Assembly: GCA_029567025.1 (NCBI GenBank) | Contig: JAKQLT010000058.1 | Span: 1 to 46,235 of the forward strand | Length of the DNA: 46,235 bases | Direction: 5' to 3' | From: Candidatus Omnitrophota bacterium | GTDB lineage: Bacteria > Omnitrophota > Gorgyraeia > Zapsychrales > Zapsychraceae | Part shown: in pieces, positions 4,790-45,589 of the stretch | How the letters are laid out: each line of letters starts with the position of its first letter | How positions within the stretch are numbered: the first letter of the stretch is position 1 | Made by a program: the position numbers and the translations under genes | Notes under the pieces: model-generated | The model's input: only the letters and a program-made list of their open reading frames with translations | Database searches by the model: none | Told to the model about the DNA's origin: nothing

Positions 4790-5020
4790 GAAAAAAATTT
4801 TGAAATAAAAATCCCCCGCTTATGCCGTTGAGAAATATAAAAGTGAACCTGTTAAACAGGTGGGGACATCTCTAAAGTCCCGATGGGTTTTTTAGAAGTT
4901 AAGCCCCCTTATAAAAAGTGTTGGTTCTTTTTATTTTTTTCCCTCACGCACACAGCAGGGGAATTATCATCAAAGATCAAAAAAATCTCATAACATCTAT
5001 TTATTATTATAACAGAAAAA

Positions 5021-12810: not shown

Positions 12811-12887
12811 TGGTGGGCTCATGAGGACTCGAACCTCAGACCTCTTCCATGTCAAGGAAGCGCTCTAACCAACTGAGCTATGAGCCC
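12811..12887 (-). tRNA. tRNA-Val (anticodon GAC), CCA encoded
   Basis: The reverse complement gggctcatagctcagttggttagagcgcttccttGACatggaagaggtctgaggttcgagtcctcatgagcccacca folds as a cloverleaf with a 7-bp acceptor stem and a TTCGAGT T-loop. Confidence 0.93.
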
Positions 12888-12897
12888 TAAAAAACTA

Positions 12898-12980
12898 TGG
12901 GCAAGGAGGGAGTCGAACCCTCACGGCCTTGCAGCCACAGGATTTTAAGTCCTGCGTGTATGCCATTCCACCACTTGCCC
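12898..12980 (-). tRNA. tRNA-Leu (anticodon UAA), long variable arm
   Basis: The reverse complement gggcaagtggtggaatgg...caggactTAAaatcctgtggctgcaaggccgtgagggttcgactccctccttgccca has a type II variable arm. No CCA is encoded. Confidence 0.9.
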
Positions 12981-13429: not shown

Positions 13430-13500
13430 AGGCGTGGACCGGAATCGAACCGGTGTAAAAGGTTTTGCAGACCTCTGCCTAACCTCTTGGCTACCACGCC
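13430..13500 (-). tRNA. tRNA-Cys (anticodon GCA)
   Basis: The reverse complement ggcgtggtagccaagaggttaggcagaggtctGCAaaaccttttacaccggttcgattccggtccacgcct forms a cloverleaf with a U discriminator. No CCA is encoded. Confidence 0.9.
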
Positions 13501-17474: not shown

Positions 17475-17786
17475 CTGAAATATACATATTTTTTCGGTAG
17501 CCAGGCTATCCCAATCTTAGGATCCTTTAGCTTTGCGTCCCAGCTTTTCAGCTAGTTTGCCTTTGTCACAAAATTTTCTAAAGAACAATAAAAACCTACT
17601 CTAAGTATATAATATTTATAAGGAAAAAAACAAGGTCTTGAGACGCAAAAAGTATGATTTTATGAAAACGCTTTCTTCCTAAGATCCAAACTTATGGATG
17701 AGCAAAGCGAAGAATATAAGCTTGATGAGCGATGAAAATTTTACCTACAAAAATTCTAATTTTTCAGGATATTATATGGAAAAATT

Positions 17787-21201: not shown

Positions 21202-22794
21202 TTACGCCACCTTTGTTTCTCTTGATATTTTTAATTGCGTAATCGTTGAAAGCAAATAAAACATAGTAAAATACAAAGTCAATCCGCTTGCAAAACGATA
21301 AAATAAAAATCCTAACATTAAAGGAAATATAAACATCATCATTTTTTGCTGTTGAACTTGCATAGGATCAGAGCTTGCCATATTCGCAGATGTCAATTTT
21401 TGTTGATAAAACATAATAAAAATCATTAAAATAGGCAAAATATTAATTTCATTGCCTATTATAGGAAAACTCGCAGGAAGAATAAAAATCCTATCCGGAA
21501 GAGATAAATCTTTAATCCATAAGAAATCAGCGCCTTTAAATGATACTGAACGCCACAAAACTTGATATAATCCAACAAAAATCGGCATTTGTAATAACAT
21601 TGGCAAACATCCGCCCAAAGGATTAATTTTATGCTCTTTATAAAGCTCCATTATTTCTTGATTTGCTTTTTGCGGGCTATTCTTATGTTTTTCTTGAATT
21701 TTCTTCATTAATGGCTGTAATGCCTGCATTTTCTTCATAGAAACTAAACTACGAATTGTTAAAGGATATGTTGCCAAATAAATAATTATGCTTATTAAAA
21801 TAATACAAACTCCCCAATTAGGAATAACTTTATAAATCATATTCATCGTATGATCAATCGCTTTTGCAACAGCGTCGAAAAACCCTGACCTATAATACCT
21901 TTTAATCTCTAATAAATTATATTTTTTTAAAATATCTGTTATTTCTGGACCAGCAAATATTAACGACGAATACGATATTTCATTATTATTTTCTGATTGG
22001 ACATCAAAACCAATAGCCAATTTCTTTTCATTAATATATTCTATTGAATAACCGGAAACTTTATATTCTGGAACAACAATCAAAGAAAAGAATCTATCTC
22101 TAAAACCAACCCAATTAACATTAACAGAATTTACTTTATTTTCTTTTTCAGTAAACTTAAACGCCTTTGCTTTACGATCAATTTCGTTTTCTATACTAAT
22201 CGCATATTCAAATAATGAATTATCATGAATATTATTTCCTTTATTTCGATCAATATCCAGATTGGACATATCTAAAATCATTGCTAATTTACTTAAATTT
22301 TTCAGATTGGACAAATTATCTTTATTTTCTAACTTTATTTTCGATTCTACAATATATTCATCAGGCCTAATTTTATAAAATTTTGAAATTTTAATCTTTT
22401 CGTTTTCATAAAAATATTGAATTTCATTGTTATTTATTATTTTTGATGAAAATTCAACCTGATCATATTCTTTTAATCCAGTAATATTTTTTACAGGAAA
22501 ATATTGTTCATATTCATTAATAAAAATTTTATTGATATTTCCGCCTAAATTAGAAAAATCAACAGTTATTTTATTATTTTTTAAAATTTCTATTTTTTCT
22601 GAAAAATCAGAAGGGGATGGGATGAATTCTTTTGCCGAAGAAACATCTTTTTTATTTTCTATATCTTGTTTATTTTCAATCACTTCTGATGCTTTATTGA
22701 CATCTTTAACAACGATAGGCTTTGGCATGATCGCTGTCCAAATAAACAAAACCATAAAAGACAAAAAAATCGCTAAAAAAAATCTTTTTTCCAT
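21202..22794 (-). CDS. yidC: Membrane protein insertase YidC
   Basis: N-terminal TM helix, large periplasmic domain and a C-terminal 60-kDa IMP core (..KKMQALQPLMKKIQEKHK..NPLGGCLPMLLQMPIF..). Confidence 0.93.
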   Translation of the reverse strand: MEKRFFLAIFLSFMVLFIWTAIMPKPIVVKDVNKASEVIENKQDIENKKDVSSAKEFIPSPSDFSEKIEILKNNKITVDFSNLGGNINKIFINEYEQYFPVKNITGLKEYDQVEFSSKIINNNEIQYFYENEKIKISKFYKIRPDEYIVESKIKLENKDNLSNLKNLSKLAMILDMSNLDIDRNKGNNIHDNSLFEYAISIENEIDRKAKAFKFTEKENKVNSVNVNWVGFRDRFFSLIVVPEYKVSGYSIEYINEKKLAIGFDVQSENNNEISYSSLIFAGPEITDILKKYNLLEIKRYYRSGFFDAVAKAIDHTMNMIYKVIPNWGVCIILISIIIYLATYPLTIRSLVSMKKMQALQPLMKKIQEKHKNSPQKANQEIMELYKEHKINPLGGCLPMLLQMPIFVGLYQVLWRSVSFKGADFLWIKDLSLPDRIFILPASFPIIGNEINILPILMIFIMFYQQKLTSANMASSDPMQVQQQKMMMFIFPLMLGFLFYRFASGLTLYFTMFYLLSTITQLKISRETKVA

Positions 22795-22875
22795 AAATGA
22801 AATATTTTAAAATAAAACAATGCCCTTCCTATCACAAGGGCTAAAAATTGTCTCTAAAATATCACTGGTAAATTA

Positions 22876-23013
22876 TTATTTGGAGACGCGTTTACGTCCT
22901 TTAGCGCGCCTTCTATTTAAAACAATACGGCCGCTTTTTGTTCGCATGCGTTTACGAAAACCGTGTTTTCTTTTACCGACAATTTTGGTTGGAGTTTTTA
23001 AATGTTTTTTCAT
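22876..23013 (-). CDS. rpmH: 50S ribosomal protein L34
   Basis: Not in the ORF track (45 aa). My translation is [45 protein letters not shown], with the L34 signature [10 protein letters not shown]. Confidence 0.93.
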
Positions 23014-23546
23014 AGGGTGCAATTATAACATAGGTCTTTTGTTAGTCAAGAGCTTTTCCTGATGCTAAAAGGATAGGTATTGTTATTTTTTTACCGTCGG
23101 AAAATAAAGAATATTCTCACAATAAAAGAAAAAAATATTTTTTAAAGCGTTTAAAGTGCTTCTGCGCGAAACACTTGCAAGCGTGTTAAAATTTAATTTG
23201 AAATGATAATGTTCTTTGTTATAATAACCGCACATTTTCATTTTTTTATAAAACTATCGGCGATTGTAAGATTACAAATCCTCAAACAACAACGCGCCCT
23301 AAAGAAAAAGATTGACAATAGAATAATTTTCCAGTACAAATGAAACCCTTCGGCGTAAAAAACCGAATCTGTTATAACAGCCGAGTCATTCCGACGATGA
23401 TAATAAAAAACGTTTTAAAATACCGTCGTTCATATAAAAATTAAGGCTGTGGAAAACCTGTGAATATAAATTTTGTTTTACTGTAAATTGTTTATTTTCA
23501 ATATTTTAAGAATTTCTTGTTATTCTTAGCACATGTGACAAATCTT
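23014..23546. other. Candidate oriC region (rpmH-dnaA divergent spacer)
   Basis: A 533-nt AT-rich non-coding spacer at the exact point where gene orientation flips from all-minus to all-plus. It contains DnaA-box-like 9-mers and lies 2.1 kb from the parS sites. Confidence 0.6.
23448..23467 (+). promoter_or_regulatory. Two DnaA-box-like 9-mers
   Basis: tgtggaaaa (23448-23456) and tgtgaatat (23459-23467) each match TGTGNATAA at 8 of 9 positions. tgtgaatat recurs at 25022-25030, just before dnaN. Confidence 0.45.
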
Positions 23547-24881
23547 ATGAGTCTCGTCGAAATTTGGAAACAAGCGCAACCTGTCATTCGAGAAAAAATA
23601 GGCGCAACATCCTATGAAACGTGGTTCTCTAATATTGAGGCCCAAAACAAAGACAATAATATTCTGCAACTTCAAGCTCCGGATGAGTTTTTTAAAAATT
23701 GGATTGTCGAACATTATCGCGAACTTATAGAAGCAACGCTTAAAAATCTTTCACAAAACATCGCGCATATTGAATTTTCCGTCAATGAAAATATTATTCA
23801 AGAAGAAAAACGCCTACGTTTAGTAGAGTTCGAAAAAGATTTTCAGCCTGTCAAAAATCATCCATCACATTTAAATCATCGCTTTACCTTTGACCATTTT
23901 GTTATCGGCCCGTCAAATCGTTTCGCGTGTGCCGCGAGTTTAGCCGTCGCAGAATCGCCGGCTAAGGCCTATAATCCTTTATTCATTTACGGCGATGTTG
24001 GCTTAGGAAAAACTCATCTGATTCAATCAATCACGCATAAAATCCAGCAATTGCATCCCCAGCAAAAAATCTGTTACCTGACATCGGAACAATTTACTAA
24101 TGAACTAATTGACGCTATTCGTCATCGCTCAACACCGGAATTTCGCAAAAAATATAGAGAGGTCGACGTTCTTTTAATTGATGATATTCATTTTATCGCC
24201 GGTAAAGAGTCCACTCAAGAAGAATTTTTCAATACCTTTAACAGTTTACATGATAATCGCAAACAAATTATCATCACCTCAGATAGGCCACCCAAAGAAA
24301 TTTCTAATTTAGAAGAACGTTTACGGTCGCGTTTTGAATGGGGCTTAACAGCGGATATTCAACCGCCTGATTATGAAACGCGCATCGCGATCTTACAAAA
24401 AAAAGTGGAAAATGAAGCGGTGAAAGTTCCGCAAGATGTGATTCAATTTATCGCGGAACAAATTAAAACCAATATTCGAGAATTAGAAGGTGCGCTTATT
24501 CGGGTTGCGGCGTATTCTTTATTAGAAGAAAAAAAAGTTACACTAGAGCTTGCGAAATCTATTTTAAAAGATATGGTAAAAGAGACGACTAAAACGATTA
24601 GCATTGAAATGATTCAAAAAACAGTCGTTGATTATTTCAAAATGTCTTTAATGGAGCTGCGATCTAAACATCGCAATAAAAATGTGGTCTTGGCCAGACA
24701 AGTCGCGATGTATTTATGCCGGCAATTAACACATTTTTCCCTACCAGAAATTGGCAATGCTTTTGGAGGTAAAGATCACACAACTGTTCTACATTCTTGC
24801 AAAAAAATAGAAGACCAAATAAAAGAAGATAGCGGTCTTAAAAACCTGGTGATGGAGTTAACCACAATTTTACAACAATGA
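23547..24881 (+). CDS. dnaA: Chromosomal replication initiator DnaA
   Basis: MSLVEIWKQ..TWF N-terminus, AAA+ motifs (GDVGLGKTHL, LLIDDIHF) and a C-terminal DNA-binding domain (..GGKDHTTVLHSCKKI). ATG at 23547 is preferred to the TTG at 23517. Confidence 0.95.
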   Translation: MSLVEIWKQAQPVIREKIGATSYETWFSNIEAQNKDNNILQLQAPDEFFKNWIVEHYRELIEATLKNLSQNIAHIEFSVNENIIQEEKRLRLVEFEKDFQPVKNHPSHLNHRFTFDHFVIGPSNRFACAASLAVAESPAKAYNPLFIYGDVGLGKTHLIQSITHKIQQLHPQQKICYLTSEQFTNELIDAIRHRSTPEFRKKYREVDVLLIDDIHFIAGKESTQEEFFNTFNSLHDNRKQIIITSDRPPKEISNLEERLRSRFEWGLTADIQPPDYETRIAILQKKVENEAVKVPQDVIQFIAEQIKTNIRELEGALIRVAAYSLLEEKKVTLELAKSILKDMVKETTKTISIEMIQKTVVDYFKMSLMELRSKHRNKNVVLARQVAMYLCRQLTHFSLPEIGNAFGGKDHTTVLHSCKKIEDQIKEDSGLKNLVMELTTILQQ

Positions 24882-31514: not shown

Positions 31515-31588
31515 GACCCCATCGTCTAGCCTGGTCAGGACACAAGCTTTTCAAGCTTGCAGCGCGGGTTCAAATCCCGCTGGGGTCG
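31515..31588 (+). tRNA. tRNA-Glu (anticodon UUC)
   Basis: gaccccatcgtctagcctggtcaggacacaagctttTTCaagcttgcagcgcgggttcaaatcccgctggggtcg has a 7-bp acceptor stem and a TTCAAAT T-loop. Confidence 0.88.
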
Positions 31589-31728: not shown

Positions 31729-33117
31729 ATGGCAGAAATTTTAAGTAAAAAAAGCAGAAAAACACCTCGTCGAAAAATTCGTATTCCTGTGGTTTGCTGG
31801 GATGGCCGCGATGAACAACGCCAGGGGCAAGGAAAAGAATTATTGATAAGGGATTTAAGCGCGGATGGCATTGGCTTTATGTCGAAACAAATTTATACCG
31901 TGGGGACCCTGTTATTTATTGATATGTATTTGCCTAAACGGAAGAAACCTGTATCGTGCCAAATTAAAGTTGTTTTTGTGAAAGCCCTTTTGCAAACAGC
32001 TGATTATGTGATGGGCGCGTCTTTTGTCAATTTATCCGATGAAGATAAGCAGTTTATTATTTTTTCTTTAGAAAAAATGGATTTTTATCTTTTATTAGAA
32101 AGTATGGTTAAGGGCGGGGCGTCTGATTTGCATTTGACAGTTGGCCGTCCTCCAATGGTTCGACGAGATGGACGTATTTTAGCGATGGCGACTGATCCTT
32201 TAGAAGAAGGGGAAGTTGAGGCCATGCTGTATCCTTTATTATCCGATGAGCAGATTCAGAATTTTAAACGAACAAAAGAATTAGATTTTGGTTTCTCTCC
32301 GAATGTAGATTGCCGTTTTCGCGTGAATATGCATTGGCAAAAAGGTTTTGTCGAAGCGGCTATTCGTAATATTCCAACGGATATTAAAACGTTTGAGGAA
32401 TTGGGCTTAGCGACTAAACAAATGGAAGGATTTTGTCAGGATCTTTCCGGATTATTTTTAATCGCCGGGACAACCGGATCTGGAAAAACAACCACCATGG
32501 CGTCCATGATTAATTTTATCAATCATAATCAGAAAAAAGTTATTATTACTATTGAAGACCCCGTGGAATATATTTTTAAGAGTGCGCAAAGCGTAATTAA
32601 ACAAAGAGAATTAGGAAGCGATACGCAGTCGTATGCCGAGGCGTTAAGGCGCGCTTTACGCCAAGATCCTGATGTGTTGTGTGTGGGAGAAATTTTGGAC
32701 GCCGAATGTTTAAAGGCCGCGTTACGCGCCGCGGAGACAGGGCATTTTGTCATTTCAACCATTCACGCTCCGGATACCGTTTCAGCGATTGAACGCGCGG
32801 TTAATTTTTTCCCGCCGGAACATGCCATGGCAATTCGCCAACAATTAGCGACAGCGCTCAAAGCGGTTTTATTTCAAATTCTTTTGCCGCGCAAAGATCA
32901 AAAAGGACGTGTTTTAGCAACAGAATTGTTAATTAACAATAGCGCGATTAAGAATTTAATTCGTGAAGGTAAGGGGATGCTTATGGGAAGCGTTTTGCAG
33001 ACCGGCAAGACTTTAGGGATGCATACGTTACAAAATTCTTTAGAAGAATTATTCAAAAAGGGATTGATCGACGAAGAAACCGTTTTGAGTCTTACCAGCC
33101 GAGAGCACGCGCTTTAA
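31729..33117 (+). CDS. PilZ-domain::PilT-like type IV pilus retraction ATPase fusion
   Basis: The N-terminal ~110 aa carry RxxxR (RRKIR, 14-18) and DxSxxG (DLSADG, 42-47). The remainder is PilT-like: ASDLHLTVGRPP, Walker A GTTGSGKTT, DPDVLCVGEI, TGHFVISTIHA and the PilT signature AIKNLIREGK. Confidence 0.85.
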   Translation: MAEILSKKSRKTPRRKIRIPVVCWDGRDEQRQGQGKELLIRDLSADGIGFMSKQIYTVGTLLFIDMYLPKRKKPVSCQIKVVFVKALLQTADYVMGASFVNLSDEDKQFIIFSLEKMDFYLLLESMVKGGASDLHLTVGRPPMVRRDGRILAMATDPLEEGEVEAMLYPLLSDEQIQNFKRTKELDFGFSPNVDCRFRVNMHWQKGFVEAAIRNIPTDIKTFEELGLATKQMEGFCQDLSGLFLIAGTTGSGKTTTMASMINFINHNQKKVIITIEDPVEYIFKSAQSVIKQRELGSDTQSYAEALRRALRQDPDVLCVGEILDAECLKAALRAAETGHFVISTIHAPDTVSAIERAVNFFPPEHAMAIRQQLATALKAVLFQILLPRKDQKGRVLATELLINNSAIKNLIREGKGMLMGSVLQTGKTLGMHTLQNSLEELFKKGLIDEETVLSLTSREHAL

Positions 33118-36149: not shown

Positions 36150-37112
36150 ATGAGATATTCTAAAAATTTTTGTGTTAGTGTCGCTATTTTATCTATTGCC
36201 TTGTTTTTAACAGGATGTGATCAATTAAAAGCTTTTCAAGAATATTTTAGTAAGAAGTCCCAATCCAAACAAGCTGTTGTTGAACAGCCGCAAGCTGTGC
36301 CTGCTGTTACTCAAGAAATTCCTCTTGGCCCTTTACCTGCTAATGTCTTAGCCCGTGTTGGCACATGGACCATGACAATGGATGATTTTAAAGAAAAATT
36401 AAATAATTTAAAACAAGCGATGCCGGATTTTGATATTACAACGGAAGAAAATCAGAAAGCTGTTTTAGATGAATTGGTGAATCAGCAGATTTTGGTTGTT
36501 GAAGCTGAGAATAAACGATTGTCTTATGATAAAGAAGTTTTCAAGGCATTAGAAGAATTTAGGCGAACGATCCTTGTTCAAAAAATGGTTTCGGATATGG
36601 TTGAGAATATTAAAGTGACAGAGGCCGAAGCGCAAGCATTATATAATGAACGTAAAGATTTTTTTGTTGAGCCTATTGAGCTTCATGTGAGAGAAATTGT
36701 TATGGATTCGCAAGCAAAAGCGAAAGAAGTCCTCGTTGATCTTTTAAAAGGCGGGGATTTTGCCGAAGCCGCGAAACAATATTCTAAAGGAAAAACAGCC
36801 GCGCAAGGCGGTGATTTAGGTTTTATCACGCAAGTTTCTTTTCCGGAAATGGGCAATGCCCTTATGGCGCTGGATGTCGGCGGCGTTAGTAATGTTTTTA
36901 AAGGCCCGGATGGATTTTATATTGTGAAAGTCGAGGAAAAAAAGGGCGGAGCCCAAGTTCCTTTTGAGAAAATCAAAGACGAGATTATAAGAAATATGAC
37001 ATTATCAAAACAACAGCAAACCGTTTTAGATTATATTGCCCAATTGCGCCAGAAAACAAAAATTGATATTAATCAAGACCTTTTAAAATCCTTATTACAG
37101 GAGAAGAAATAA
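36150..37112 (+). CDS. PpiC/parvulin-type peptidyl-prolyl isomerase lipoprotein (PrsA/SurA-like)
   Basis: Lipobox LFLTGC. Parvulin core FAEAAKQYSKGKTAAQGGDLGFI..GPDGFYIVKV. The stop overlaps the cpaB start (TAATG). Confidence 0.82.
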   Translation: MRYSKNFCVSVAILSIALFLTGCDQLKAFQEYFSKKSQSKQAVVEQPQAVPAVTQEIPLGPLPANVLARVGTWTMTMDDFKEKLNNLKQAMPDFDITTEENQKAVLDELVNQQILVVEAENKRLSYDKEVFKALEEFRRTILVQKMVSDMVENIKVTEAEAQALYNERKDFFVEPIELHVREIVMDSQAKAKEVLVDLLKGGDFAEAAKQYSKGKTAAQGGDLGFITQVSFPEMGNALMALDVGGVSNVFKGPDGFYIVKVEEKKGGAQVPFEKIKDEIIRNMTLSKQQQTVLDYIAQLRQKTKIDINQDLLKSLLQEKK

Positions 37113-37984
37113 TGTTTAATATAGAAAATAAAAAACAATTTGCGATTATTTTATTAGCGGTTGGTTTAGGATTGTTTGCAGCTTTTCTTACAAGCCAGTA
37201 CATTAAAAATAGTATTACCGAGCAAACAAAGACTTTTGCGCAATCGTATGTCCAAAGTAATATGGAGAAAGAACAACAATTACAACAACAAATTGAAATG
37301 TTGCGCGCACAAATGGCTCAGGAAATTCAAAGAGTGGCTCAAGAAGCGGCTCAGCAGGCCGCGGCGCAACAAGCTCAGCAACAAGTTGTTACCAAAACAG
37401 AAGAAAAAGAAGTTCGTCAAGAAGCTTTTTCTGTGCGTATGCCAAAAGGCAAAAGAGCATTAACTGTTCTTATTGACTCTTTGTCTGCAGTCGGCGGTCT
37501 TATTAAAGCTGGTGATTTGGTTGATATTATTGCGCATTTAAAAGTGCCAGATATTACAAAAGATAAAGACAGAGAAATTGTCAAAGTTGATGATGTAACC
37601 ACTATTTTATTCCAGAAAATTTTAGTTCTTTCTGTGAATACGAACTTCGATGATATGACGCCACCAGATTATGTGCAACAGCAACAAGCTGGACGATTGA
37701 ATATTACTTTAGCGTTGGAACCTGAAGCCGCGGCTTTATTGACATTTGCTCAGAAAAATGGTCAATTACAATTTACATTGCGTGCGCCGGATGAAAAAGA
37801 AACAGGTGTTTTTAAAGTTGCGTCATGGCAAGCGTTATCCGATTTTGTATTAGAACATCAAGGAACACGGCTTAAAGTTCCTCGTGATAAAATAAATACA
37901 GCGACTCCTGTTGTAACAACAGAAATAGAAAAAGAACCTGAGCCTGTTATAAAAATTTTTAAATCAGGACAAGCGGTTCAATAA
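37112..37984 (+). CDS. cpaB: Flp pilus assembly protein CpaB/RcpC-like with a Gln-rich coiled-coil insert
   Basis: N-terminal TM helix. CpaB-type core (MPKGKRALTVLIDSLSAVGGLIKAGDLVDII.. ..ILVLSVN.. ..ITLALEPEAAALLTFAQKNGQLQFTLR). Preceded by EQQLQQQIEMLRAQMAQEIQRVAQEAAQQAAAQQAQQQ. Confidence 0.8.
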   Translation: MFNIENKKQFAIILLAVGLGLFAAFLTSQYIKNSITEQTKTFAQSYVQSNMEKEQQLQQQIEMLRAQMAQEIQRVAQEAAQQAAAQQAQQQVVTKTEEKEVRQEAFSVRMPKGKRALTVLIDSLSAVGGLIKAGDLVDIIAHLKVPDITKDKDREIVKVDDVTTILFQKILVLSVNTNFDDMTPPDYVQQQQAGRLNITLALEPEAAALLTFAQKNGQLQFTLRAPDEKETGVFKVASWQALSDFVLEHQGTRLKVPRDKINTATPVVTTEIEKEPEPVIKIFKSGQAVQ

Positions 37985-38002: not shown

Positions 38003-39766
38003 ATGATAAAAAAGAAAAAGTTTTTTTATTTCATTTTTTTTGTTGTTATTTGCTGTTTATTTTTTTCAAAAGCGCTTTGTGCTCAAATAGCAGAACAAGC
38101 GGACATTGTTGATACAAAAGAAGCCAAAGGCATTGCGTTAATGAAAGGAGAAATAGCAACTCTAAAGGTGTATGATTTAACACGGATTTCTTTAACAGAT
38201 CCTTCCGTGGCTGATATTATTGAAGCTAAAGGCGATAAAATTTTATTAATCGCGCGTGAGGTTGGACAAACGGTTTTATTTTTATGGGATAAATATGGAA
38301 AAAAGACTTTTGTTGTGTATGTTTTTAACCAAAATTTGGAAGAAATTCAAAATCGTTTAATATCTCTTTTTCAAGTCGCTGAAATTGAAGGTATTCAATT
38401 GTCCATTAATAATAAAGAAGGAAAAATAGTGCTTTCTGGCGGAGTGCCAGAAGATAAACAAGATTTATTTAATAAAATTATAGAACCATTTTCTCCAGAT
38501 ATTATTGTATTAACAGAGAAAGAAAAACGCGATGATTTGGTGCAAATAGACATGCAGGTGACTGAATTATCGACGACATTATCACAAACCTTAGGTATTG
38601 ATTGGACAAATCAACTGAAATACAATGAAACATTACCGAGCTTTGACGGATCCGTTAAAGATTATTTTAAAATAGGAGATTTTAATCGTACCACAGCTCT
38701 TTTAGCAACGGTTAACGCTTTGCTTGTCGAAGGAAAGGCGCGTATTTTATCACAACCTAAATTAGTTGTCGTAAGTGGTGAAGAAGCGAATTTTTTGGTT
38801 GGAGGGGAAATTCCTGTTAGAACCGCAACGGTTAATGAAACAGGAACGGCTGAGAATGTGAATTATAAATCTTATGGTATTGGAATGACAATAAAACCTA
38901 TTATTCGTAAGAAAAAAATAGATATTACGTTAAGCACAGAAATTAGCGACGTGGATGCTTCTAATTCTTCAGAAGATAATGTTGCTTTTGTTACGAGAAC
39001 AGCGCAAACACAGTTGTTTTTAGAAGATGGCCAAACCATTGTTTTGGCTGGATTGATTAGAAGTACAAAAAGTCAAGAAGTTAAACAAGTGCCGTTTTTA
39101 GGAAAAATACCTGTTGTTGGATTATTATTTCGTAGTAAATCAACGCCTGCCGCTAATCAAGACAATGAAATAGTTATTTCTTTAACGCCGTATATTTTAA
39201 TGAATAAAAAAGATGATTTGGTTTTAGAGAATATGGAAAACATGCGCATACAAGAGAAAGCAGTCAATAATATAGCGCAAGAAAAAGAAGAACCAAAAAT
39301 GTTAGATATTCAGGATTCTGTTGATGAGAAGACTTTAGAACAATCTCAAAAAGTTGAGACGCTTGCAGAAAAATCACCGCTGATTAAAAAGACTGTCAAA
39401 GAAATGCCTGTGATTGATGAAAAGCCATTATCGGTGAATTCTTCAGAATATCTTTTTGGTATTCCGGAAGAATTGCAAGAGTATGTTAAAGATGTTCAAA
39501 AAAGAATTGCTCAAGCGATTTCTTATCCTCAGGAAGCACAAAGTTATGGTTGGCAGGGCGTTGTTAAAATCGGAATGCTTATTCTTAACGACGGAACGCT
39601 TGCCTTCGCTTTGGTAAAAGAATCATCCGGCTATGAAGTTTTTGATAACAACGCGTTAAAGGTCGCAAAATCTTTAGCGCCTTATCCGCGTTTTCCTGCG
39701 AATACGGATTTGATGGAATTAAGCATTACCGTTCCTATCGTTTATTCTTTGACCAAACAAAAATAA
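38003..39766 (+). CDS. cpaC: Tad-type secretin (CpaC/RcpA-like) fused to a C-terminal TonB_C-like domain
   Basis: Signal peptide. Pilus-formation N-terminal domain (..ISLTDPSVADIIEAKGDKILLIAREVGQTVLFLW..). Secretin core (ARILSQPKLVVVSGEEANFLVGGEIPV.., VPFLGKIPVVGLLFRS). Charged linker, then YPQEAQSYGWQGVVKIGMLILNDGTL..VKESSGYEVFDNNALKVAKSL..FP, which matches the TonB C-terminal pattern. Confidence 0.82.
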   Translation: MIKKKKFFYFIFFVVICCLFFSKALCAQIAEQADIVDTKEAKGIALMKGEIATLKVYDLTRISLTDPSVADIIEAKGDKILLIAREVGQTVLFLWDKYGKKTFVVYVFNQNLEEIQNRLISLFQVAEIEGIQLSINNKEGKIVLSGGVPEDKQDLFNKIIEPFSPDIIVLTEKEKRDDLVQIDMQVTELSTTLSQTLGIDWTNQLKYNETLPSFDGSVKDYFKIGDFNRTTALLATVNALLVEGKARILSQPKLVVVSGEEANFLVGGEIPVRTATVNETGTAENVNYKSYGIGMTIKPIIRKKKIDITLSTEISDVDASNSSEDNVAFVTRTAQTQLFLEDGQTIVLAGLIRSTKSQEVKQVPFLGKIPVVGLLFRSKSTPAANQDNEIVISLTPYILMNKKDDLVLENMENMRIQEKAVNNIAQEKEEPKMLDIQDSVDEKTLEQSQKVETLAEKSPLIKKTVKEMPVIDEKPLSVNSSEYLFGIPEELQEYVKDVQKRIAQAISYPQEAQSYGWQGVVKIGMLILNDGTLAFALVKESSGYEVFDNNALKVAKSLAPYPRFPANTDLMELSITVPIVYSLTKQK

Positions 39767-39784: not shown

Positions 39785-41950
39785 ATGAATGCAAAAACGA
39801 TAACACTTTTTAGTAATAAAGGTGGCGTGGGTAAAACTTTTATCGCGGTAAATTTAGCCGCGGCGTTGGCCATTTCTAAAAAGAAAGTTTTACTTTTAGA
39901 TTTTGACTTGCAAGCCGGCCAAGATATGGCCCGTGTCATTAATCTTTCCCCGAAAGCATCCATTATCGATCTTTTGCCTCGATTAGAAACAATTGAAAAA
40001 ATAGATTCGATGATCGAATTTGTCGCTGTTCATTCGTCGGGCGTTCATTTCTTACCTGCCGTGCGCGGCATTAAACAAATCAATCATGTTACTCCAGATA
40101 ATATCAAACCGTTTATTCGTAAGGCTAAAGAATTTTATGATTATATTCTGATTGATGCGGGCCGTTCGTTTAGTGAGACATTAATTACTCTTTTTGATTA
40201 TTCGAATTTGTTATTATTGGTGGCCACACCTGATATTTTAGCTGTTTATCAAATTAAAACGAGTATTGATATTTTGCAGAATCTTCAATTCCCGCTTAAG
40301 ATTGCAAAACTGATTTTAAATCGTTCGGAAAGTAGCGGAAGCGTGGCGTGGCAGGAAATTCGTACCGCACTTCCTTGTGAGATTTTCAGTCATATTCCTT
40401 CCGACGGAAAAGTAGTAGGTTTAGCCTTAAATCGTGGAATTCCGTGTGTTTTAGATAGTCCTAAAAGTAAAGTCGCTGAGTCTTTTATGCGCATGGCCCA
40501 GATGATTGAAAAAGATAAAGATCTTTTTGTGGAATCAACGGATATTGAAAAACAAAGGGCGGTAGAAAGCGTTTCTGCTCAAGGGCAATTTTGGGAAAAT
40601 TTTGGAATTTCTCAGCATGTGGCGGATGCGGCTGGCGCTATCACGGCTATTAAAGAAGATGATGAAATAACTATTTTAAAGAAAAAAATACATGAAAAAC
40701 TTATTGAGCGTTTAAATCTCGACGGGATTACGCCAGAGAAATTAAACGATCCACAAACGATAGCGCGTGTTAAAAAAACATCGGAACAGTTAGTCGGAAA
40801 TCTTTTAATGGAAGAAATGGGCGGGAAACAAATCGCTTCTCATGAAGAGCGTATTCATATTGTGAAAGACGTGGTCAATGAGGCTTTAGGATTAGGGCCT
40901 TTAGAAGATCTTTTGGCGGATGGCGATGTGACAGATATTATGGCGAATAATCGTAATGAAATTTATGTGGAGAAAAACGGCCGTCTTGTGTTAACCAATA
41001 AGAAATTTTTGTCTGATTCTCGCATGCGTGCGGTTATAGATCGTATTATCGCGCCTTTAGGCCGTCGTATTGATGAATCAACGCCGATGGTGGATGCGCG
41101 TTTGCCTGACGGTTCGCGTATTAACGCGATTATTCCGCCATTGTCTTTAAACGGTCCGATGATTACGATTCGTAAATTTGGACAGGAGCGTTTAACGGTC
41201 ACAGATTTACTGTCTCAGTATAAAAGTTTGACAGAGCCAATGTCAAAATTTTTACAAGCGAGCGTTGTGGCGCGAAAAAATATTATTGTTTCCGGCGGAA
41301 CAGGTTCAGGAAAAACAACTCTTTTAAACGTGTTATCTGAATTTATTCCTGATGGAGAGCGCATTATTACGATAGAAGACGCCGCAGAATTGAAACTCAA
41401 AAAAAGCCATTGGGCGCGATTAGAGTCACGACCGTCGAACGTTGAAGGAAAAGGCCAGGTAACCATTCGGGATCTTTTTACGAATTGTTTGCGTATGCGA
41501 CCTGATCGTATTGTTATTGGGGAATGTCGTGGCGCTGAAGTTTTAGATATGCTTCAGGCAATGAATACGGGACACGATGGTTCTTTAACCACTATTCACG
41601 CGAATTCCGCGCGCGATGTTTTGACGCGTTTGCATTCTTTAATTTTATTAAGTGGTATTGAACTTCCTGTTCGCGCTATTAATGAAATGGTGGCTTCCGC
41701 GATTCATTTGATCGTTCACATTAATCGTTATTCCGACGGTTCAAGAAAAGTGACTGGTATCGCGGAAATAGTGGGATTAGATAAAGATTTTCAGCCAGAA
41801 CTAAAAGATATTTTTGTTTTTAAACAGGCTGGCATTGACTCTGATGGAAAAGTGATAGGTTCTTATGTCCCAACCGGATACATTCCAAAATGTTATCAGG
41901 ATTTTATCACTCAAGGCATCAAAATTGATAAAAATATTTTTTCGCTTTAA
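39785..41950 (+). CDS. TadZ/CpaE-like ParA/MinD ATPase fused to TadA/CpaF secretion ATPase
   Basis: Residues 1-245 are ParA/MinD-like (FSNKGGVGKTFIAVNLA, LIDAG). Residues ~290-721 are CpaF-like (LGPLEDLL.D..VTDIM.N, Walker A GGTGSGKTT, IITIEDAAEL, RPDRIVIGECRG, NTGHDGSLTTIHANS). It is one uninterrupted 721-aa ORF. Confidence 0.85.
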   Translation: MNAKTITLFSNKGGVGKTFIAVNLAAALAISKKKVLLLDFDLQAGQDMARVINLSPKASIIDLLPRLETIEKIDSMIEFVAVHSSGVHFLPAVRGIKQINHVTPDNIKPFIRKAKEFYDYILIDAGRSFSETLITLFDYSNLLLLVATPDILAVYQIKTSIDILQNLQFPLKIAKLILNRSESSGSVAWQEIRTALPCEIFSHIPSDGKVVGLALNRGIPCVLDSPKSKVAESFMRMAQMIEKDKDLFVESTDIEKQRAVESVSAQGQFWENFGISQHVADAAGAITAIKEDDEITILKKKIHEKLIERLNLDGITPEKLNDPQTIARVKKTSEQLVGNLLMEEMGGKQIASHEERIHIVKDVVNEALGLGPLEDLLADGDVTDIMANNRNEIYVEKNGRLVLTNKKFLSDSRMRAVIDRIIAPLGRRIDESTPMVDARLPDGSRINAIIPPLSLNGPMITIRKFGQERLTVTDLLSQYKSLTEPMSKFLQASVVARKNIIVSGGTGSGKTTLLNVLSEFIPDGERIITIEDAAELKLKKSHWARLESRPSNVEGKGQVTIRDLFTNCLRMRPDRIVIGECRGAEVLDMLQAMNTGHDGSLTTIHANSARDVLTRLHSLILLSGIELPVRAINEMVASAIHLIVHINRYSDGSRKVTGIAEIVGLDKDFQPELKDIFVFKQAGIDSDGKVIGSYVPTGYIPKCYQDFITQGIKIDKNIFSL

Positions 41951-42429: not shown

Positions 42430-44247
42430 ATGGGTGTTATTTATAAGCTAAAACAAGAAGTTATTGATTATATTCTTCACATAAAGAAAGAAAATAATGA
42501 TTTTAGTTGCCGTCAAATTGCGAAAATCGCTTCCGATAAATTTGATGTGGACATTTCTAAATCTTCTGTAAATACTATTCTTAAGAATTCTCAATTAAGT
42601 AGCGGTGTCGGTCGTCGGGTTATTCAAAAAAAAGATTCGAGCCGCAAGTTTCAGATTCCTCAAGAAAGAAAAGAACAATTTCAAGAAACCATGAAACAGT
42701 TTGGTTTTGAAAAAGAAAATGTTGTTGCCATAGAAGAGCCGATAGCTGTACCGCTTTTGCCGGATGCAGTTAAGGAAAATCTTTTTTTGGAGCCCAAAAG
42801 CGATGATATCATGCTTTTGGAATCTCAAGCGCCAACATTATTAGTCTCGCAAGAACAACATTTGTCTTTAACCGATCAAACAGATTCAAAGCTGATAGAA
42901 GAAATAGATTTTTTACGCCAACAAAAACAGCAGGCATTTTCAAAAGTTTATACAAATGCAGGAGTTATTTTATTAAAAGCATTGTTATTGTTGACAGATG
43001 GCATCGGATTTTTATTGAAGATTATTAAAAAATATAATCCAGAACATATTTTTCCGGATAATTTTGAAGAGAGTTTAAATATTTTTCTTTTATTAAAGGC
43101 CTTAGGAATCAAAGATCCTTTTGAAGAAGATATTTCTTCTTACGCGGCAGGACTTTTGGGGCTACAAAAATCAGATAGCGCTTATGTGGGTCAGGCATTA
43201 GCCAGCGAAGATTCTCGAAAGATTTTTTTTCAGTGGAGCAAAAAAATACGCCTTTCTGATGATTTATTAAAGGAATACAGGAAAGAGAAAAATAATCTAT
43301 TTTTGAGCGTTTATGGCTTTAGGATAGAGTTGGAAGACAAAACAGTTTTATTGACAGATGCTTCTTTAAAATCTTTTTATAAAGAAATGGATTGTATTTT
43401 TCCATTGCCTTTTTATCATGCGATTCGTTTATTGTCTCAATATTTTATTGTGAATGAAAAGCCGATGGTTTTTGATTTTTCCGGAAATTCTTTGTTGTAT
43501 TTGCCTCAGATTGCCAAGATGTTCGATAATGTAAAAGAAAAGCGCGTTCAAAAAATATTTATCTTGAATGATCATCTGCAAGACATTTGTGAATTATCCG
43601 TCATTCCTCAAAAAAAGCGTCAATGGATAGCCCGTGTCGATTTTTCTTTTTTTGAAGGTATGGAAAAAACGGTTTCGGCGGGATCCCGTAAAAAAGTTTT
43701 TTATGATGCATTGTCCGACGAGATATATGATTTTTCAGAATTTCTTTGCCAGCTTGATCATAATCAAAACGTGAGAGCGTTTATTATTGAAAATAAATCG
43801 TGCGAGCGTTTAGCGACTGTTTTTTCTAATTGTTTTGAAATGGAATCTGAAGCTGTTGTATCGTCTTTTTTTATGCGTTTTATATTTAAAAATTCTTTTG
43901 TTAAAGAAAAAGTTTCTGTTACCGGATTTTTAAAGAATAATGAAAATGCGATAATAGAAAATTTTTCAGATTTGGCGGACGACTTTTTAAAAACGTTCGC
44001 GAATTATTTTACGCAGTATTTTTTGTCTGATAAGAATAAAGATAATAGTAGCGCTTGGAATGAATTTTTGAAATTGAAAGGCTCTTTCGATGAGACAAAA
44101 CAATTTTTACATGCGCTGTTTTATCTCGATGAAAAAAGTCCTTTTAAGAATGATTGTATTATGGCAATGCGCATTTTCAATGAGTATTTGATTTTGGATG
44201 ATAAACAGCGCAGGATTTTTTTAGATATTGCTAAAATCAACAATTAG
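42430..44247 (+). CDS. Hypothetical 605-aa protein with an N-terminal helix-turn-helix-like region
   Basis: The N-terminus FSCRQIAKIASDKFDVDISKSSVNTILKN looks like an HTH. The rest has no recognised motifs. Only one weakly hydrophobic stretch (AGVILLKALLLLTDGIGFLL), so it is not a TadB/TadC polytopic platform protein. Confidence 0.6.
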   Translation: MGVIYKLKQEVIDYILHIKKENNDFSCRQIAKIASDKFDVDISKSSVNTILKNSQLSSGVGRRVIQKKDSSRKFQIPQERKEQFQETMKQFGFEKENVVAIEEPIAVPLLPDAVKENLFLEPKSDDIMLLESQAPTLLVSQEQHLSLTDQTDSKLIEEIDFLRQQKQQAFSKVYTNAGVILLKALLLLTDGIGFLLKIIKKYNPEHIFPDNFEESLNIFLLLKALGIKDPFEEDISSYAAGLLGLQKSDSAYVGQALASEDSRKIFFQWSKKIRLSDDLLKEYRKEKNNLFLSVYGFRIELEDKTVLLTDASLKSFYKEMDCIFPLPFYHAIRLLSQYFIVNEKPMVFDFSGNSLLYLPQIAKMFDNVKEKRVQKIFILNDHLQDICELSVIPQKKRQWIARVDFSFFEGMEKTVSAGSRKKVFYDALSDEIYDFSEFLCQLDHNQNVRAFIIENKSCERLATVFSNCFEMESEAVVSSFFMRFIFKNSFVKEKVSVTGFLKNNENAIIENFSDLADDFLKTFANYFTQYFLSDKNKDNSSAWNEFLKLKGSFDETKQFLHALFYLDEKSPFKNDCIMAMRIFNEYLILDDKQRRIFLDIAKINN

Positions 44248-44287: not shown

Positions 44288-44314
44288 TTTTATGAAAGAG
44301 TGTTTTTAGCGGTT

Positions 44315-44470
44315 ATGATTATTTTAAAAAACAATCATAAAGGTCAAAGTATTATTGAATATGTTCTTGTCGCGACTATTGTCGCGGCCGCTGTTATGGC
44401 TATGAGCACTTATGTTTTTCGTTCGGTTCAGGCCACACAGCAAATGATTCAAAAGGAAGCTAATAAATAA
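44315..44470 (+). CDS. flp: Flp-family prepilin (51 aa)
   Basis: Not in the ORF track (short). My translation is MIILKNNHKG/QSIIEYVLVATIVAAAVMAMSTYVFRSVQATQQMIQKEANK*. It has the G/xxxxEY processing motif followed by a hydrophobic helix. An upstream in-frame GTG at 44300 is an alternative start. Confidence 0.75.
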   Translation: MIILKNNHKGQSIIEYVLVATIVAAAVMAMSTYVFRSVQATQQMIQKEANK

Positions 44471-44506
44471 TAAAATAATAAGAGAGAAAATAAAGGAGGA
44501 AAGCGC

Positions 44507-44719
44507 ATGTTAAGACAATATCAGGCAGGATGTTTTAAAAGAAAGAGAAAAGGACAAAGTACGGTTGAGTATATTATTTTAGTAGCAGGCGTTATTGCGG
44601 TCTTATTGATTTTTTTACGTCCCAACGGCCCTTTTCATACGGCTTTTAATGAAACATTAAAAACCGGAACAAATGGAATGGAAACTATAGCTGAAAGATT
44701 AAAAAATTCTCATTCATAA
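44507..44719 (+). CDS. Flp-like prepilin paralog (70 aa)
   Basis: RBS AAAGGAGGA. KRKRKG/QSTVEYIILVAGVIAVLLIF. Confidence 0.78.
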   Translation: MLRQYQAGCFKRKRKGQSTVEYIILVAGVIAVLLIFLRPNGPFHTAFNETLKTGTNGMETIAERLKNSHS

Positions 44720-44749
44720 AAAAGGTCATAAAAGATCAGGAGGCGTTTT

Positions 44750-45172
44750 ATGTTGAAAAAATTATTTAAAAATAAGAAGGCCCAAAATACCGCTGAATAT
44801 GCGATATTGATTTCTTTAGTTGTGGACGGGATTGTTGCTATGCAAACGTATGCTCAACGAGCTTTGCAAGCTCGCGTTAAAGATTCAGCTGATGTTATGA
44901 CATCTATTGTGGGTACTTCAGATGTTCAGAATTCTTGGAGTGATGTTGGCGGAAATGCTTTAGGTTCCACAAAACAATATGAACCATATTATTTAGCGCA
45001 AGATTATAATGTTTATCGTGATGATTCAGAAGAAAAAGGTTATGATACTGCGGGCTTTTATGTTGATTCTAATGGAGAAAGAAGGAGAAGAGGTAAACAA
45101 ACGACAACATATAATGAATCCGGCACAGTTGGTACAGGCATGAGTGGATTGTCCAAATCACCAACACCATAG
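44750..45172 (+). CDS. Flp/TadE-like pilin paralog (140 aa)
   Basis: RBS AGGAGG. KNKKA/QNTAEYAILISLVV, then YAQRALQARVK and a YEPYY motif. Confidence 0.75.
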   Translation: MLKKLFKNKKAQNTAEYAILISLVVDGIVAMQTYAQRALQARVKDSADVMTSIVGTSDVQNSWSDVGGNALGSTKQYEPYYLAQDYNVYRDDSEEKGYDTAGFYVDSNGERRRRGKQTTTYNESGTVGTGMSGLSKSPTP

Positions 45173-45220
45173 TAACATATGTAATAAAATAAAATATTTT
45201 ATAATTTTAAGGAGGAAATA

Positions 45221-45589
45221 ATGTTTAAATATTTAAATAAAAAAAGAGGTCAAAGCACTTTAGAATATGCGATTTTGATAATAATTATTATAGGCGCGCT
45301 TTTATCCATTCAGGTTTATATTAAGCGCGGTATTCAAGGCCGTTTAAAAGGCGCGGCGGATGATATCGGGGATCAATTTTCACCAGGAAATACGAATTCC
45401 AGAATAACTACAAGGACAATAAGTAATACTCAAGAAACAAATTATGGAGGTGAGGCTACGTCTGAATTGTTAGAAGATGAAGTTACAACGACTAATAAAA
45501 CGCTTAGAATTATTAATACTGATCAAGAATATTGGGGAGTATCTCATAGCGCTAGTGGTCAGGGTCAGATCCCGCAGAATCCTAATTAA
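45221..45589 (+). CDS. Flp/TadE-like pilin paralog (122 aa)
   Basis: RBS AAGGAGGA. NKKRG/QSTLEYAILIIIIIGALL, then YIKRGIQGRLK. Confidence 0.75.
   Translation: MFKYLNKKRGQSTLEYAILIIIIIGALLSIQVYIKRGIQGRLKGAADDIGDQFSPGNTNSRITTRTISNTQETNYGGEATSELLEDEVTTTNKTLRIINTDQEYWGVSHSASGQGQIPQNPN

Follow-up and report, generated by a model that had tools for sequence, protein, structure and literature searches.

A Tad secretin with a C-terminal TonB_C domain

The stretch of DNA analysed here, referred to as the window, comprises the 46,235 nucleotides of contig JAKQLT010000058.1 (assembly GCA_029567025.1) from a member of Candidatus Omnitrophota, a phylum of ultra-small bacteria that depend on hosts, are widespread and have hardly been cultured (PMC10066038). 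The window carries a Tad (Flp) pilus locus, within which a single open reading frame (ORF) encodes a secretin, the pore-forming protein of the outer membrane, that ends in a domain of the TonB_C family. The parts of this gene, with their positions in amino acids (aa) of the product, are the following.

38003-39766 (+): secretin ORF, 587 aa; Tad-type secretin with a C-terminal TonB_C domain
38003-38083 (+): signal peptide of the secretin, aa 1-27; modelled as an N-terminal helix at aa 3-30
38105-38524 (+): periplasmic N-terminal modules of the secretin; pil_N at aa 35-108 and an N1-like module at aa 112-174
38537-39199 (+): secretin core (beta-barrel and gate region), aa 179-399, from Pfam and fold matches
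39200-39460 (+): E/K-rich flexible tether, aa 400-486, from composition and predicted local confidence
39461-39751 (+): domain with the TonB_C, or TolA/TonB C-terminal, fold, aa 487-583, from profile and fold matches

The product of 38003-39766 was shown to be the outer-membrane secretin of the Tad pilus machine of an Omnitrophota-type genome. When the whole protein was compared with Pfam, Secretin (PF00263) matched aa 242-399 with an E-value (E) of 2.7e-39, and T2SS-T3SS_pil_N (PF13629) matched aa 58-101 (E 2.3e-8), within a beta-sandwich module; the N1-like module that follows is an alpha/beta domain with a weak match to the BON-like domain of YscD. The closest sequences of solved structure are 8jvb (E 5.8e-33) and RcpA of Pseudomonas aeruginosa, 8odn (E 7e-26). 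Cleavage of the signal peptide is predicted around ALCA/Q, with no lipobox. AMIN, SPOR, LysM and OmpA-like profiles were absent from the Pfam matches to this protein at E up to 1. A full-length AlphaFold model was built on an alignment of 38 homologues (A1), and in a fold search with this model the first 40 neighbours were all secretins, followed by TonB C-terminal domains. The N-terminal modules are modelled with a predicted local distance difference test (pLDDT) score of 89-96, and the overall predicted template modelling score (pTM) of the model is 0.41.

Beyond the core, the earlier note on this DNA had described a charged linker of some 85 residues, which proved accurate: the tether is 87 aa long, with 14.9% E, 13.8% K and 4.6% P, and its pLDDT is only 35-56 in the full-length model. 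It starts with a low-confidence helix (aa 403-426), and aa 427-479 are disordered (pLDDT 35-45). Neither its length nor its sequence is conserved in the family, where the shortest tethers have 37 aa and the median is about 60 aa. No docking of the C-terminal domain in cis is evident in the full-length model and, because of the pTM of 0.41 and the disordered tether, we regard this domain as an independent module on a flexible tether, without a fixed docking site on its own chain. The shortest tethers (37-43 aa) reach at most roughly 13-15 nm, so that the binding partner of the module is to be expected close to the outer membrane or to the peptidoglycan layer.

The same note had placed a TonB C-terminal-like domain at 39461-39763, coordinates that are exact and correspond to aa 487-587, and the peptide on which it relied (YPQEAQSYGWQGVVKIGMLILNDGTLAFALVKESSGYEVFDNNALKVAKSLAPYPRFP) is found at aa 508-565 of the ORF. 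The profile match that it had predicted is also there. TonB_C (PF03544) matches aa 506-583 with E 9.2e-15 and 55.3 bits, against a gathering cut-off of 24.6, and the NCBIfam model TIGR01352 (tonB_Cterm) reaches 50.8 bits where 27.1 are required, both matches being far beyond chance; TonB_2 (PF13103) matches aa 492-575 with 23.2 bits (cut-off 22), and the TolA full-length model matches the protein weakly. Scanned by itself, the 101-aa C-terminal segment gives TonB_C with E 7e-16. From its N-terminus, the domain consists of a helix, a YP motif, two strands, SSG, a further helix, APYxxFP and an edge strand, TVPIVYSL.

Structural prediction agrees with the profiles. In the full-length model aa 489-581 have a pLDDT of about 95, and a model of the isolated domain, built on an alignment of 26 C-terminal segments (A2), has a pLDDT of 84.7 and a pTM of 0.74, with elements in the order helix-helix-strand-strand-helix-strand (H-H-E-E-H-E); taken together, the two models put the domain at pLDDT 85-97, as an alpha/beta fold whose three-stranded sheet packs on helices. 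A Foldseek search of the PDB with this model returned only C-terminal domains of TonB, FusB, HasB or TolA in its first 26 places, the best being TonB of Helicobacter pylori (5lw8 and 6sly; E about 3e-6, TM-score 0.78, root-mean-square deviation 2.1-2.5 Å), as the earlier note had anticipated when it proposed a superposition on TonB and TolA. Independently of the model, the A2 sequence profile found H. pylori TonB (6sly) in the PDB over the full domain length, with E 1e-11 and 28% identity, in an alignment that covers the extra N-terminal helix as well as the terminal IPIxYSL strand. Family alignments contain invariant Y, P, G, S-G, D, P, F-P, T, P and Y in the domain; Y508-P509, S542-G543 and T-x-P-I-V-Y vary little or not at all, and the edge strand is almost invariant. 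Mean column identity is 65% over TonB_C against 36% over the whole protein, showing that the domain is the best-conserved part of the secretin and, by this measure, under stronger constraint than the rest of it.

Distribution of the fusion and of related domains

To establish how common this architecture is, we relied on homology searches, a scan of genomes and a profile search. A search with the window secretin gave 329 matches, and PF03544 occurs together with PF00263 in all 120 of those that were listed, whose named members are Candidatus Omnitrophota or Zapsychrus. A second search, with the most divergent relative (31% identity) as query, gave 550 matches, again with both domains in 120 of the 120 listed. 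The architecture search suggested in the earlier note thus yields hundreds of clusters in the databases. A scan of GTDB with one genome per species recovered at least 560 stretches that encode a relative of the secretin; the best 80 of these loci, together with two earlier loci, are the 82 related loci to which the counts of loci below refer. Secretin and TonB_C lie in one ORF in 80 of the 82, which are all 80 informative loci, since in the remaining two the gene is split by a frameshift, with its parts in overlapping ORFs (L063), or broken by a run of N (L070).

In about 8% of the members, proteins of 685-802 aa in total (for example P0003, P0091, P0012 and L044), TonB_C occurs twice in tandem with low-complexity linkers in between, a duplication that fits avidity-based binding. 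Two proteins of 1045-1091 aa (P0338 and P0348) have further long extensions. Metagenome-assembled genomes (MAGs) labelled Planctomycetales, Phycisphaerae and Elulimicrobium contain an identical operon of peptidyl-prolyl isomerase (PPIase), CpaB, secretin-TonB_C, TadZA and DUF192 genes; for operon-sharing MAGs under these names, as well as under Deltaproteobacteria, the deviating names are probably differences in labelling. The secretin-TonB_C loci are one gene-cluster lineage, and the fusion is a phylum-wide trait of Omnitrophota, a lineage hallmark and not a one-off. Public databases name these proteins either 'TonB family protein' (ncbi and nr; P0002, P0023, P0028 and others) or 'pilus assembly protein CpaC' (JGI). 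The former is a misleading name that hides a core component of the Tad machine, and it would inflate the count of TonB proteins in metabolic reconstructions of Omnitrophota.

The domain itself is not confined to secretins. A profile search of 1.84 billion cluster representatives recovered 2389 proteins at E up to 1e-10; among the best 150 of these, 88 are secretin fusions, whereas another 29, long proteins other than secretins, bear 2-6 TonB_C repeats. In several of the latter (P0377, P0386, P0345, P0318 and P0376) the repeats form the N-terminal part of a TolC-like outer-membrane efflux protein (OEP, PF02321). P0377 has 1183 aa and six repeats, and its cluster holds an entry labelled Omnitrophica; P0386 is labelled Omnitrophota, and at least two OEP fusions come from MAGs so labelled. 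A homology search with the protein bearing six TonB_C repeats and OEP gave 3 matches, a number to be read with the repetitive query in mind, as it probably saturates the word index. Two OEP-TonB_C genes were located on Omnitrophota-type contigs.

L083, 8001-10076: OEP-TonB_C gene
L085, 7001-9010: OEP-TonB_C gene

The genes for P0376 and P0386 lie in operons of the resistance-nodulation-division (RND) type, divergently adjacent to giant genes (>2,300-4,300 aa). A 2026 preprint mentions 'TonB-domain' genes that flank giant genes, the nature of which is not recognised there, and the OEP-TonB_C genes may be these. The OEP repeats are 30-40% identical to the TonB_C domain of the window and share its N-terminal helix, YP and SSG, together with PYPxP. 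They are thus of the same TonB_C subtype, on the periplasmic side of an outer-membrane channel; unlike in the window secretin, however, they stand at the N-terminus as 2-6 tandem copies, on a trimeric efflux channel encoded in RND operons beside giant genes. Given the secretin and OEP fusions, two unrelated classes of outer-membrane channel in Omnitrophota bear TonB_C on their periplasmic side.

The Tad operon and its surroundings

The secretin gene stands third in a Tad locus with the order parvulin PPIase lipoprotein, CpaB/RcpC, secretin, TadZ-TadA, DUF192 protein, 605-aa protein and four Flp-type pilins; the arrangement of CpaB/RcpC, TadZ, TadA and Flp pilins recurs in 78-81 of the 82 related loci. 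Its remaining genes are the following.

36150-37112 (+): parvulin-type PPIase lipoprotein, first gene of the operon; Pfam Rotamase_2, Rotamase and Rotamase_3
37112-37984 (+): CpaB/RcpC alignment-complex protein; Pfam RcpC (PF16976), E 1.7e-20
39785-41950 (+): TadZ (ParA/MinD-like) fused to the TadA/CpaF secretion ATPase, 721 aa
41972-42328 (+): DUF192 protein; Pfam DUF192, E 5e-17; in 64-65 of 82 loci; no evident signal peptide
42430-44247 (+): conserved 605-aa protein with an N-terminus resembling a helix-turn-helix (HTH); in 57-58 of 82 loci
44300-45589 (+): four tandem Flp-type (class III signal peptide) pilin or pilin-like genes
44300-44470 (+): Flp-type gene
44507-44719 (+): Flp-type gene
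44750-45172 (+): Flp-type gene
45221-45589 (+): Flp-type gene

The parvulin lipoprotein, found upstream of cpaB in 72-73 loci, has the lipobox LTGC followed by D, and the G-C-D motif is conserved across the alignment, while its lipid-proximal linker is unconserved and free of any conserved strand motif. At an ATGA its stop codon and the start of cpaB overlap, so that the two genes are translationally coupled. We know of no previous description of a dedicated foldase as a component of a Tad locus. CpaB, present in 81 loci, is made up of an N-terminal transmembrane helix, a variable, Q/A-rich linker, the RcpC domain and a conserved C-terminal tail, I-x-I-F-R-G-G. The TadZ-TadA fusion, with Pfam matches to AAA_31, CbiA and ParA at aa 4-240 and to T2SSE at aa 368-646, is kept in 80 loci; a similar TadZA fusion is carried by Bdellovibrio (bioRxiv 10.64898/2026.07.08.737194). 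The 605-aa protein has no Pfam match, and one of its homologues gives a weak match to HTH_32. The Flp-type genes encode N-termini of the G/xxxEY type with weak matches to Flp_Fap and Class_IIIsignal, and families homologous to them lie downstream in 52-58 loci. The Tad context also includes a TadG-like gene.

Several families that could have been expected around such a secretin were missing. No family of tetratricopeptide repeat (TPR) type, as in TadD, or of OmpA type, as in CpaD, is conserved within 10 kb of the secretin in the 82 loci. TonB-dependent receptors were found neither among the window ORFs scanned nor among the conserved neighbour families of these loci, and the same is true of the ExbBD/TolQR motor families (MotA_ExbB and ExbD).

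The remainder of the window spans a replication-origin region, with yidC, parAB, dnaA, dnaN, dciA, gyrB and gyrA. The GC skew changes sign near 23 kb, and an AT-rich gap at 22795-23516 (about 30% GC) separates yidC (-) from dnaA (+), which is followed by dnaN, dciA, gyrB and gyrA; the stretch 21202-24881 is the probable replication origin. From dnaA to the Tad locus the distance is about 13 kb; Velamenicoccus archaeovorus likewise has a reported Tad locus at chromosomal positions 12-30 kb. The gene at 31729-33117 (+), which separates gyrA from the Tad operon, encodes a PilZ domain fused to a T2SSE-type secretion ATPase, an arrangement kept in 67 of the 82 loci, which suggests control of a pilus or of secretion in response to cyclic di-GMP (c-di-GMP). 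A c-di-GMP-I-GGC riboswitch (RF03167; 66.7 bits, gathering score 59) lies at 17492-17570 (-), directly upstream of the ORF at 14558-17287 (-), the 908-aa product of which has no Pfam family and is apparently under c-di-GMP control. Other RNA genes are a 6S RNA (71.6 bits) and four tRNAs, at 4809-4964 (-), 12814-12980 and 13430-13500 (-), and 31515-31588 (+).

Possible roles of the tethered domain

In its core and its pil_N-type N-domain the window secretin resembles RcpA of P. aeruginosa (8odn) and CpaC of Caulobacter, as it does in the position of its gene, which adjoins rcpC/cpaB, the tadZ/tadA ATPase genes and Flp pilins. Unlike RcpA, which ends a few residues past the core, its C-terminus is about 190 aa longer, consisting of tether and TonB_C; it also lacks the short TadD-binding tail, in a locus around which no TPR lipoprotein family is conserved within 10 kb. 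P. aeruginosa RcpA binds the TPR pilotin TadD, without which it does not assemble, by its final four residues (PMC10499894), whereas CpaC of Caulobacter is encircled by a belt of the OmpA-like lipoprotein CpaD, through which it is proposed to be held to peptidoglycan (PMC13170226).

The possibility that the gene encodes a true TonB was rejected on its architecture, namely, a signal peptide and a secretin N-terminus, with no motor genes in the window or among the conserved neighbours. TonB and TolA have an N-terminal transmembrane helix (with an SHLS motif) that couples them to ExbBD or TolQR, a periplasm-spanning domain and a C-terminal domain, which binds its targets by beta-strand addition, an established mechanism (PMC12204202). 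In the window secretin the membrane anchor is replaced by a cleavable signal peptide followed by secretin domains, and the Pro-rich or long helical domain II by a short, disordered E/K-rich linker with 4.6% Pro. What is shared with the C-terminal domains of TonB (H. pylori 5lw8/6sly, E. coli, P. aeruginosa and N. meningitidis), HasB, FusB and TolA (domain III) is the fold, the YP and SSG motifs and the edge strand; the extra N-terminal helix is as in the H. pylori TonB, HasB and TolA types. However, the domain of the window has about 28% identity to the closest TonB of solved structure and is tethered from the outer-membrane side, to a secretin and without a motor.

TonB-like proteins have already been linked, genetically or physically, to secretin assembly or pilus biogenesis in other systems, namely, ExeB/GspB in type II secretion systems (T2SS), PocAB-TonB3 in the type IVa pili (T4aP) of P. 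aeruginosa and TonB2 in A. baumannii. Unlike the present domain, these are separate proteins anchored in the inner membrane, and their proposed target is the STN/N0 domain, which the window secretin lacks. The fusion nevertheless offers a 'Rosetta stone' hint that the TonB_C fold and secretins work together. A further resemblance, functional and hypothetical since the folds are unrelated, is to the AMIN domains of PilQ, the LysM domain of TsaP, FimV, ExeA and the OmpA-like CpaD, all with a proposed role in fixing a secretin ring by many small periplasmic binding modules.

The earlier note had suggested that the domain could bind peptidoglycan or a TonB-box-like strand of a partner, which is plausible; the flexible tether without evident docking in cis, the related modules on TolC-like channels and the lack of conserved TadD- or CpaD-like families within 10 kb narrow this suggestion only indirectly. 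Among the functions that could be assigned to the tethered domain, the one that we put forward, at a probability of roughly 0.45, is that of a multivalent skirt for anchoring and positioning, which would bind a generic component of the cell envelope through the conserved edge strand. By analogy with RcpA, the 13-14 subunits would each suspend a single TonB_C module in the periplasm, close beneath the outer membrane, and twice that number would hang there in the tandem forms of about 8% of lineages. Each module would capture an extended strand of its partner by beta-strand addition on TVPIVYSL, the mode of action common to every characterised member of the fold; direct binding to peptidoglycan is conceivable but less certain. 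The partner would most likely be a generic envelope component, not a pilus-specific one, as the TonB_C repeats on TolC-like channels point to. Jointly the modules would anchor, position and stabilise the pore, and might aid its assembly, in a skirt able to withstand the pull that arises when a pilus retracts on host or prey cells. Such a skirt would stand in for accessories that are separate elsewhere, such as the TadD pilotin on the RcpA tail, the CpaD belt, TsaP/LysM or AMIN domains, and it would be uncoupled from any ExbBD motor, rather than act as a TonB energy transducer. Support for an anchoring role comes from the position of the domain, which equals that of known accessory-binding elements, namely, the RcpA tail with TadD and the CpaD belt.

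Several considerations weigh against this proposal. Anchoring is inferred from position, fold and analogy, and the reach of the tether restricts where the partner lies but does not identify it. We sought a TonB-box-like conserved strand in the operon partners and no assignment resulted: the parvulin linker offers no candidate, and the conserved strand that ends CpaB is by homology already partnered, with the secretin N-domain. Even so, the parvulin lipoprotein or this CpaB strand, both encoded in the same operon, could be a Tad-specific partner. The argument for a generic partner from the OEP fusions is suggestive, and at 30-40% identity the partners of the two kinds of domain could differ. 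To our knowledge TonB_C is not an established peptidoglycan-binding fold; such binding was reported by Kaserer et al. in 2008, in a proposal that is not widely accepted. Finally, the absence of TadD- and CpaD-like families applies to the 10 kb around the locus.

An alternative that keeps the domain within the Tad machine, and which we consider unlikely, is that TonB_C acts as a staple, binding the N-domain of its own or a neighbouring secretin subunit, or the C-terminal strand of CpaB, and thereby aids ring assembly or regulates docking of the alignment complex. This would be a cis version of the roles proposed for ExeB/GspB and PocAB-TonB3 with T2SS and T4aP secretins, and Tad secretin N-domains are indeed hubs of strand complementation: a beta-hairpin of RcpC completes the sheet of the RcpA N-domain (PMC12307814), and CpaI packs onto the N-domain of CpaC (PMC13170226). 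TonB-like ExeB binds the N0N1 region of ExeD (PMC4098917), and T4aP assembly requires TonB3, for which contact with the N0 domain of PilQ has been speculated (PMC5285504, PMC8811193). Moreover, the tether is long enough for the N-domain ring, and CpaB presents its I-x-I-F-R-G-G strand after a variable linker. However, the full-length model (pTM 0.41) contains no confident docking in cis, that CpaB tail by homology has its partner already, the STN/N0 domain on which the speculation about TonB3 and ExeB depends is missing from the window secretin, and the related repeats on TolC-like channels have no Tad partner at hand. The latter proteins also bear on a distinctly unlikely scenario in which TonB_C replaces a pilotin, capturing a strand of an outer-membrane lipoprotein, of a component of the BAM or Lol machineries or of another outer-membrane protein while the secretin crosses the periplasm, so as to target it to the outer membrane and trigger assembly in place of the interaction between TadD and the RcpA tail. 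The domain does occupy the place of the S-domain or tail by which secretins bind a pilotin (PMC10499894), conserved TPR lipoprotein families of TadD type are missing near the locus, and a chaperone-like parvulin lipoprotein is translationally coupled upstream. Yet TolC-like channels, which carry the same module, often in 2-6 copies, assemble via BAM without pilotins, and the tandem copies and multivalency are more easily reconciled with a permanent tether than with a signal for transient targeting. As for the parvulin lipoprotein, its lipid-proximal linker has no conserved strand motif. In E. coli lipoproteins, Asp at position +2 signals retention in the inner membrane; the parvulin lipoprotein has a conserved Asp there, although a rule of E. 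coli may not hold here.

The close relation of the domain to functional TonB proteins (H. pylori, E 1e-11, 28% identity and the same IPIxYSL end), its intact edge strand and YP motif and the weak TolA match would be consistent with binding to the TonB boxes of TonB-dependent transporters or to the N-terminus of TolB, by which nutrient import or Tol-Pal would be co-localised with the pilus pore, or the TonB and TolA of the cell would meet a competitor. We judge this very improbable: genes for TonB-dependent receptors, ExbBD and TolQR are absent from the window and from the conserved neighbour families, a survey of Omnitrophota reports that canonical clusters of TonB-dependent receptors and Sus proteins are absent from its genomes (bioRxiv 10.64898/2026.06.07.730766), and without a motor such binding would block the transporters. 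The chance that the fusion is an error of assembly or gene calling, or that the domain is a decaying and functionless relic, is negligible. The two parts do lie in overlapping ORFs in L063, but all 80 informative loci, which come from independent assemblies and sources, have one intact ORF, no other segment of the secretin is as conserved as the domain and the fold of the domain is predicted with confidence, so that the conservation data effectively refute this explanation.

A bolder extension of the anchoring skirt, which is decidedly doubtful, is that Omnitrophota use TonB_C 'in reverse'. Freed of the motor, the domains would serve as hands on outer-membrane channels, the Tad secretin and TolC-like efflux proteins alike, that grasp a common TonB-box-like strand of an unrecognised envelope scaffold or landmark. 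This would be a new anchoring and positioning system that concentrates the machinery of attack and secretion at the site of host contact, and it would also provide, for the first time, physical evidence of why type IV pilus secretins depend on TonB-like proteins (PocAB-TonB3 and ExeB), a long-standing question.

We found no description of a secretin-TonB_C fusion in the literature on secretins, on TonB_C and TonB-like proteins or on Omnitrophota; the main analysis of Tad in Omnitrophota (PMC10066038) mentions neither TonB nor the word 'secretin'. The sequences and their automatic domain annotations are already public, and what is new is the description of a Tad secretin with a lineage-fixed TonB_C accessory, an architecture surprising to specialists. 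It bears on an old puzzle, namely, why Pseudomonas, Acinetobacter and Aeromonas need TonB-like proteins to assemble secretins and form pili, and the domain, soluble and of about 100 aa, is an easily testable handle on how the pore is kept in position. Among the organelles with which Omnitrophota may attach and attack, Tad pili are the leading candidates. The targeting and anchoring of Tad secretins, which vary between model organisms, are only now being resolved, with TadD in Pseudomonas and CpaD in Caulobacter. The present secretin, which occurs throughout the phylum and brings its own docking domain of TonB type on a tether, would be a third solution beside these two.

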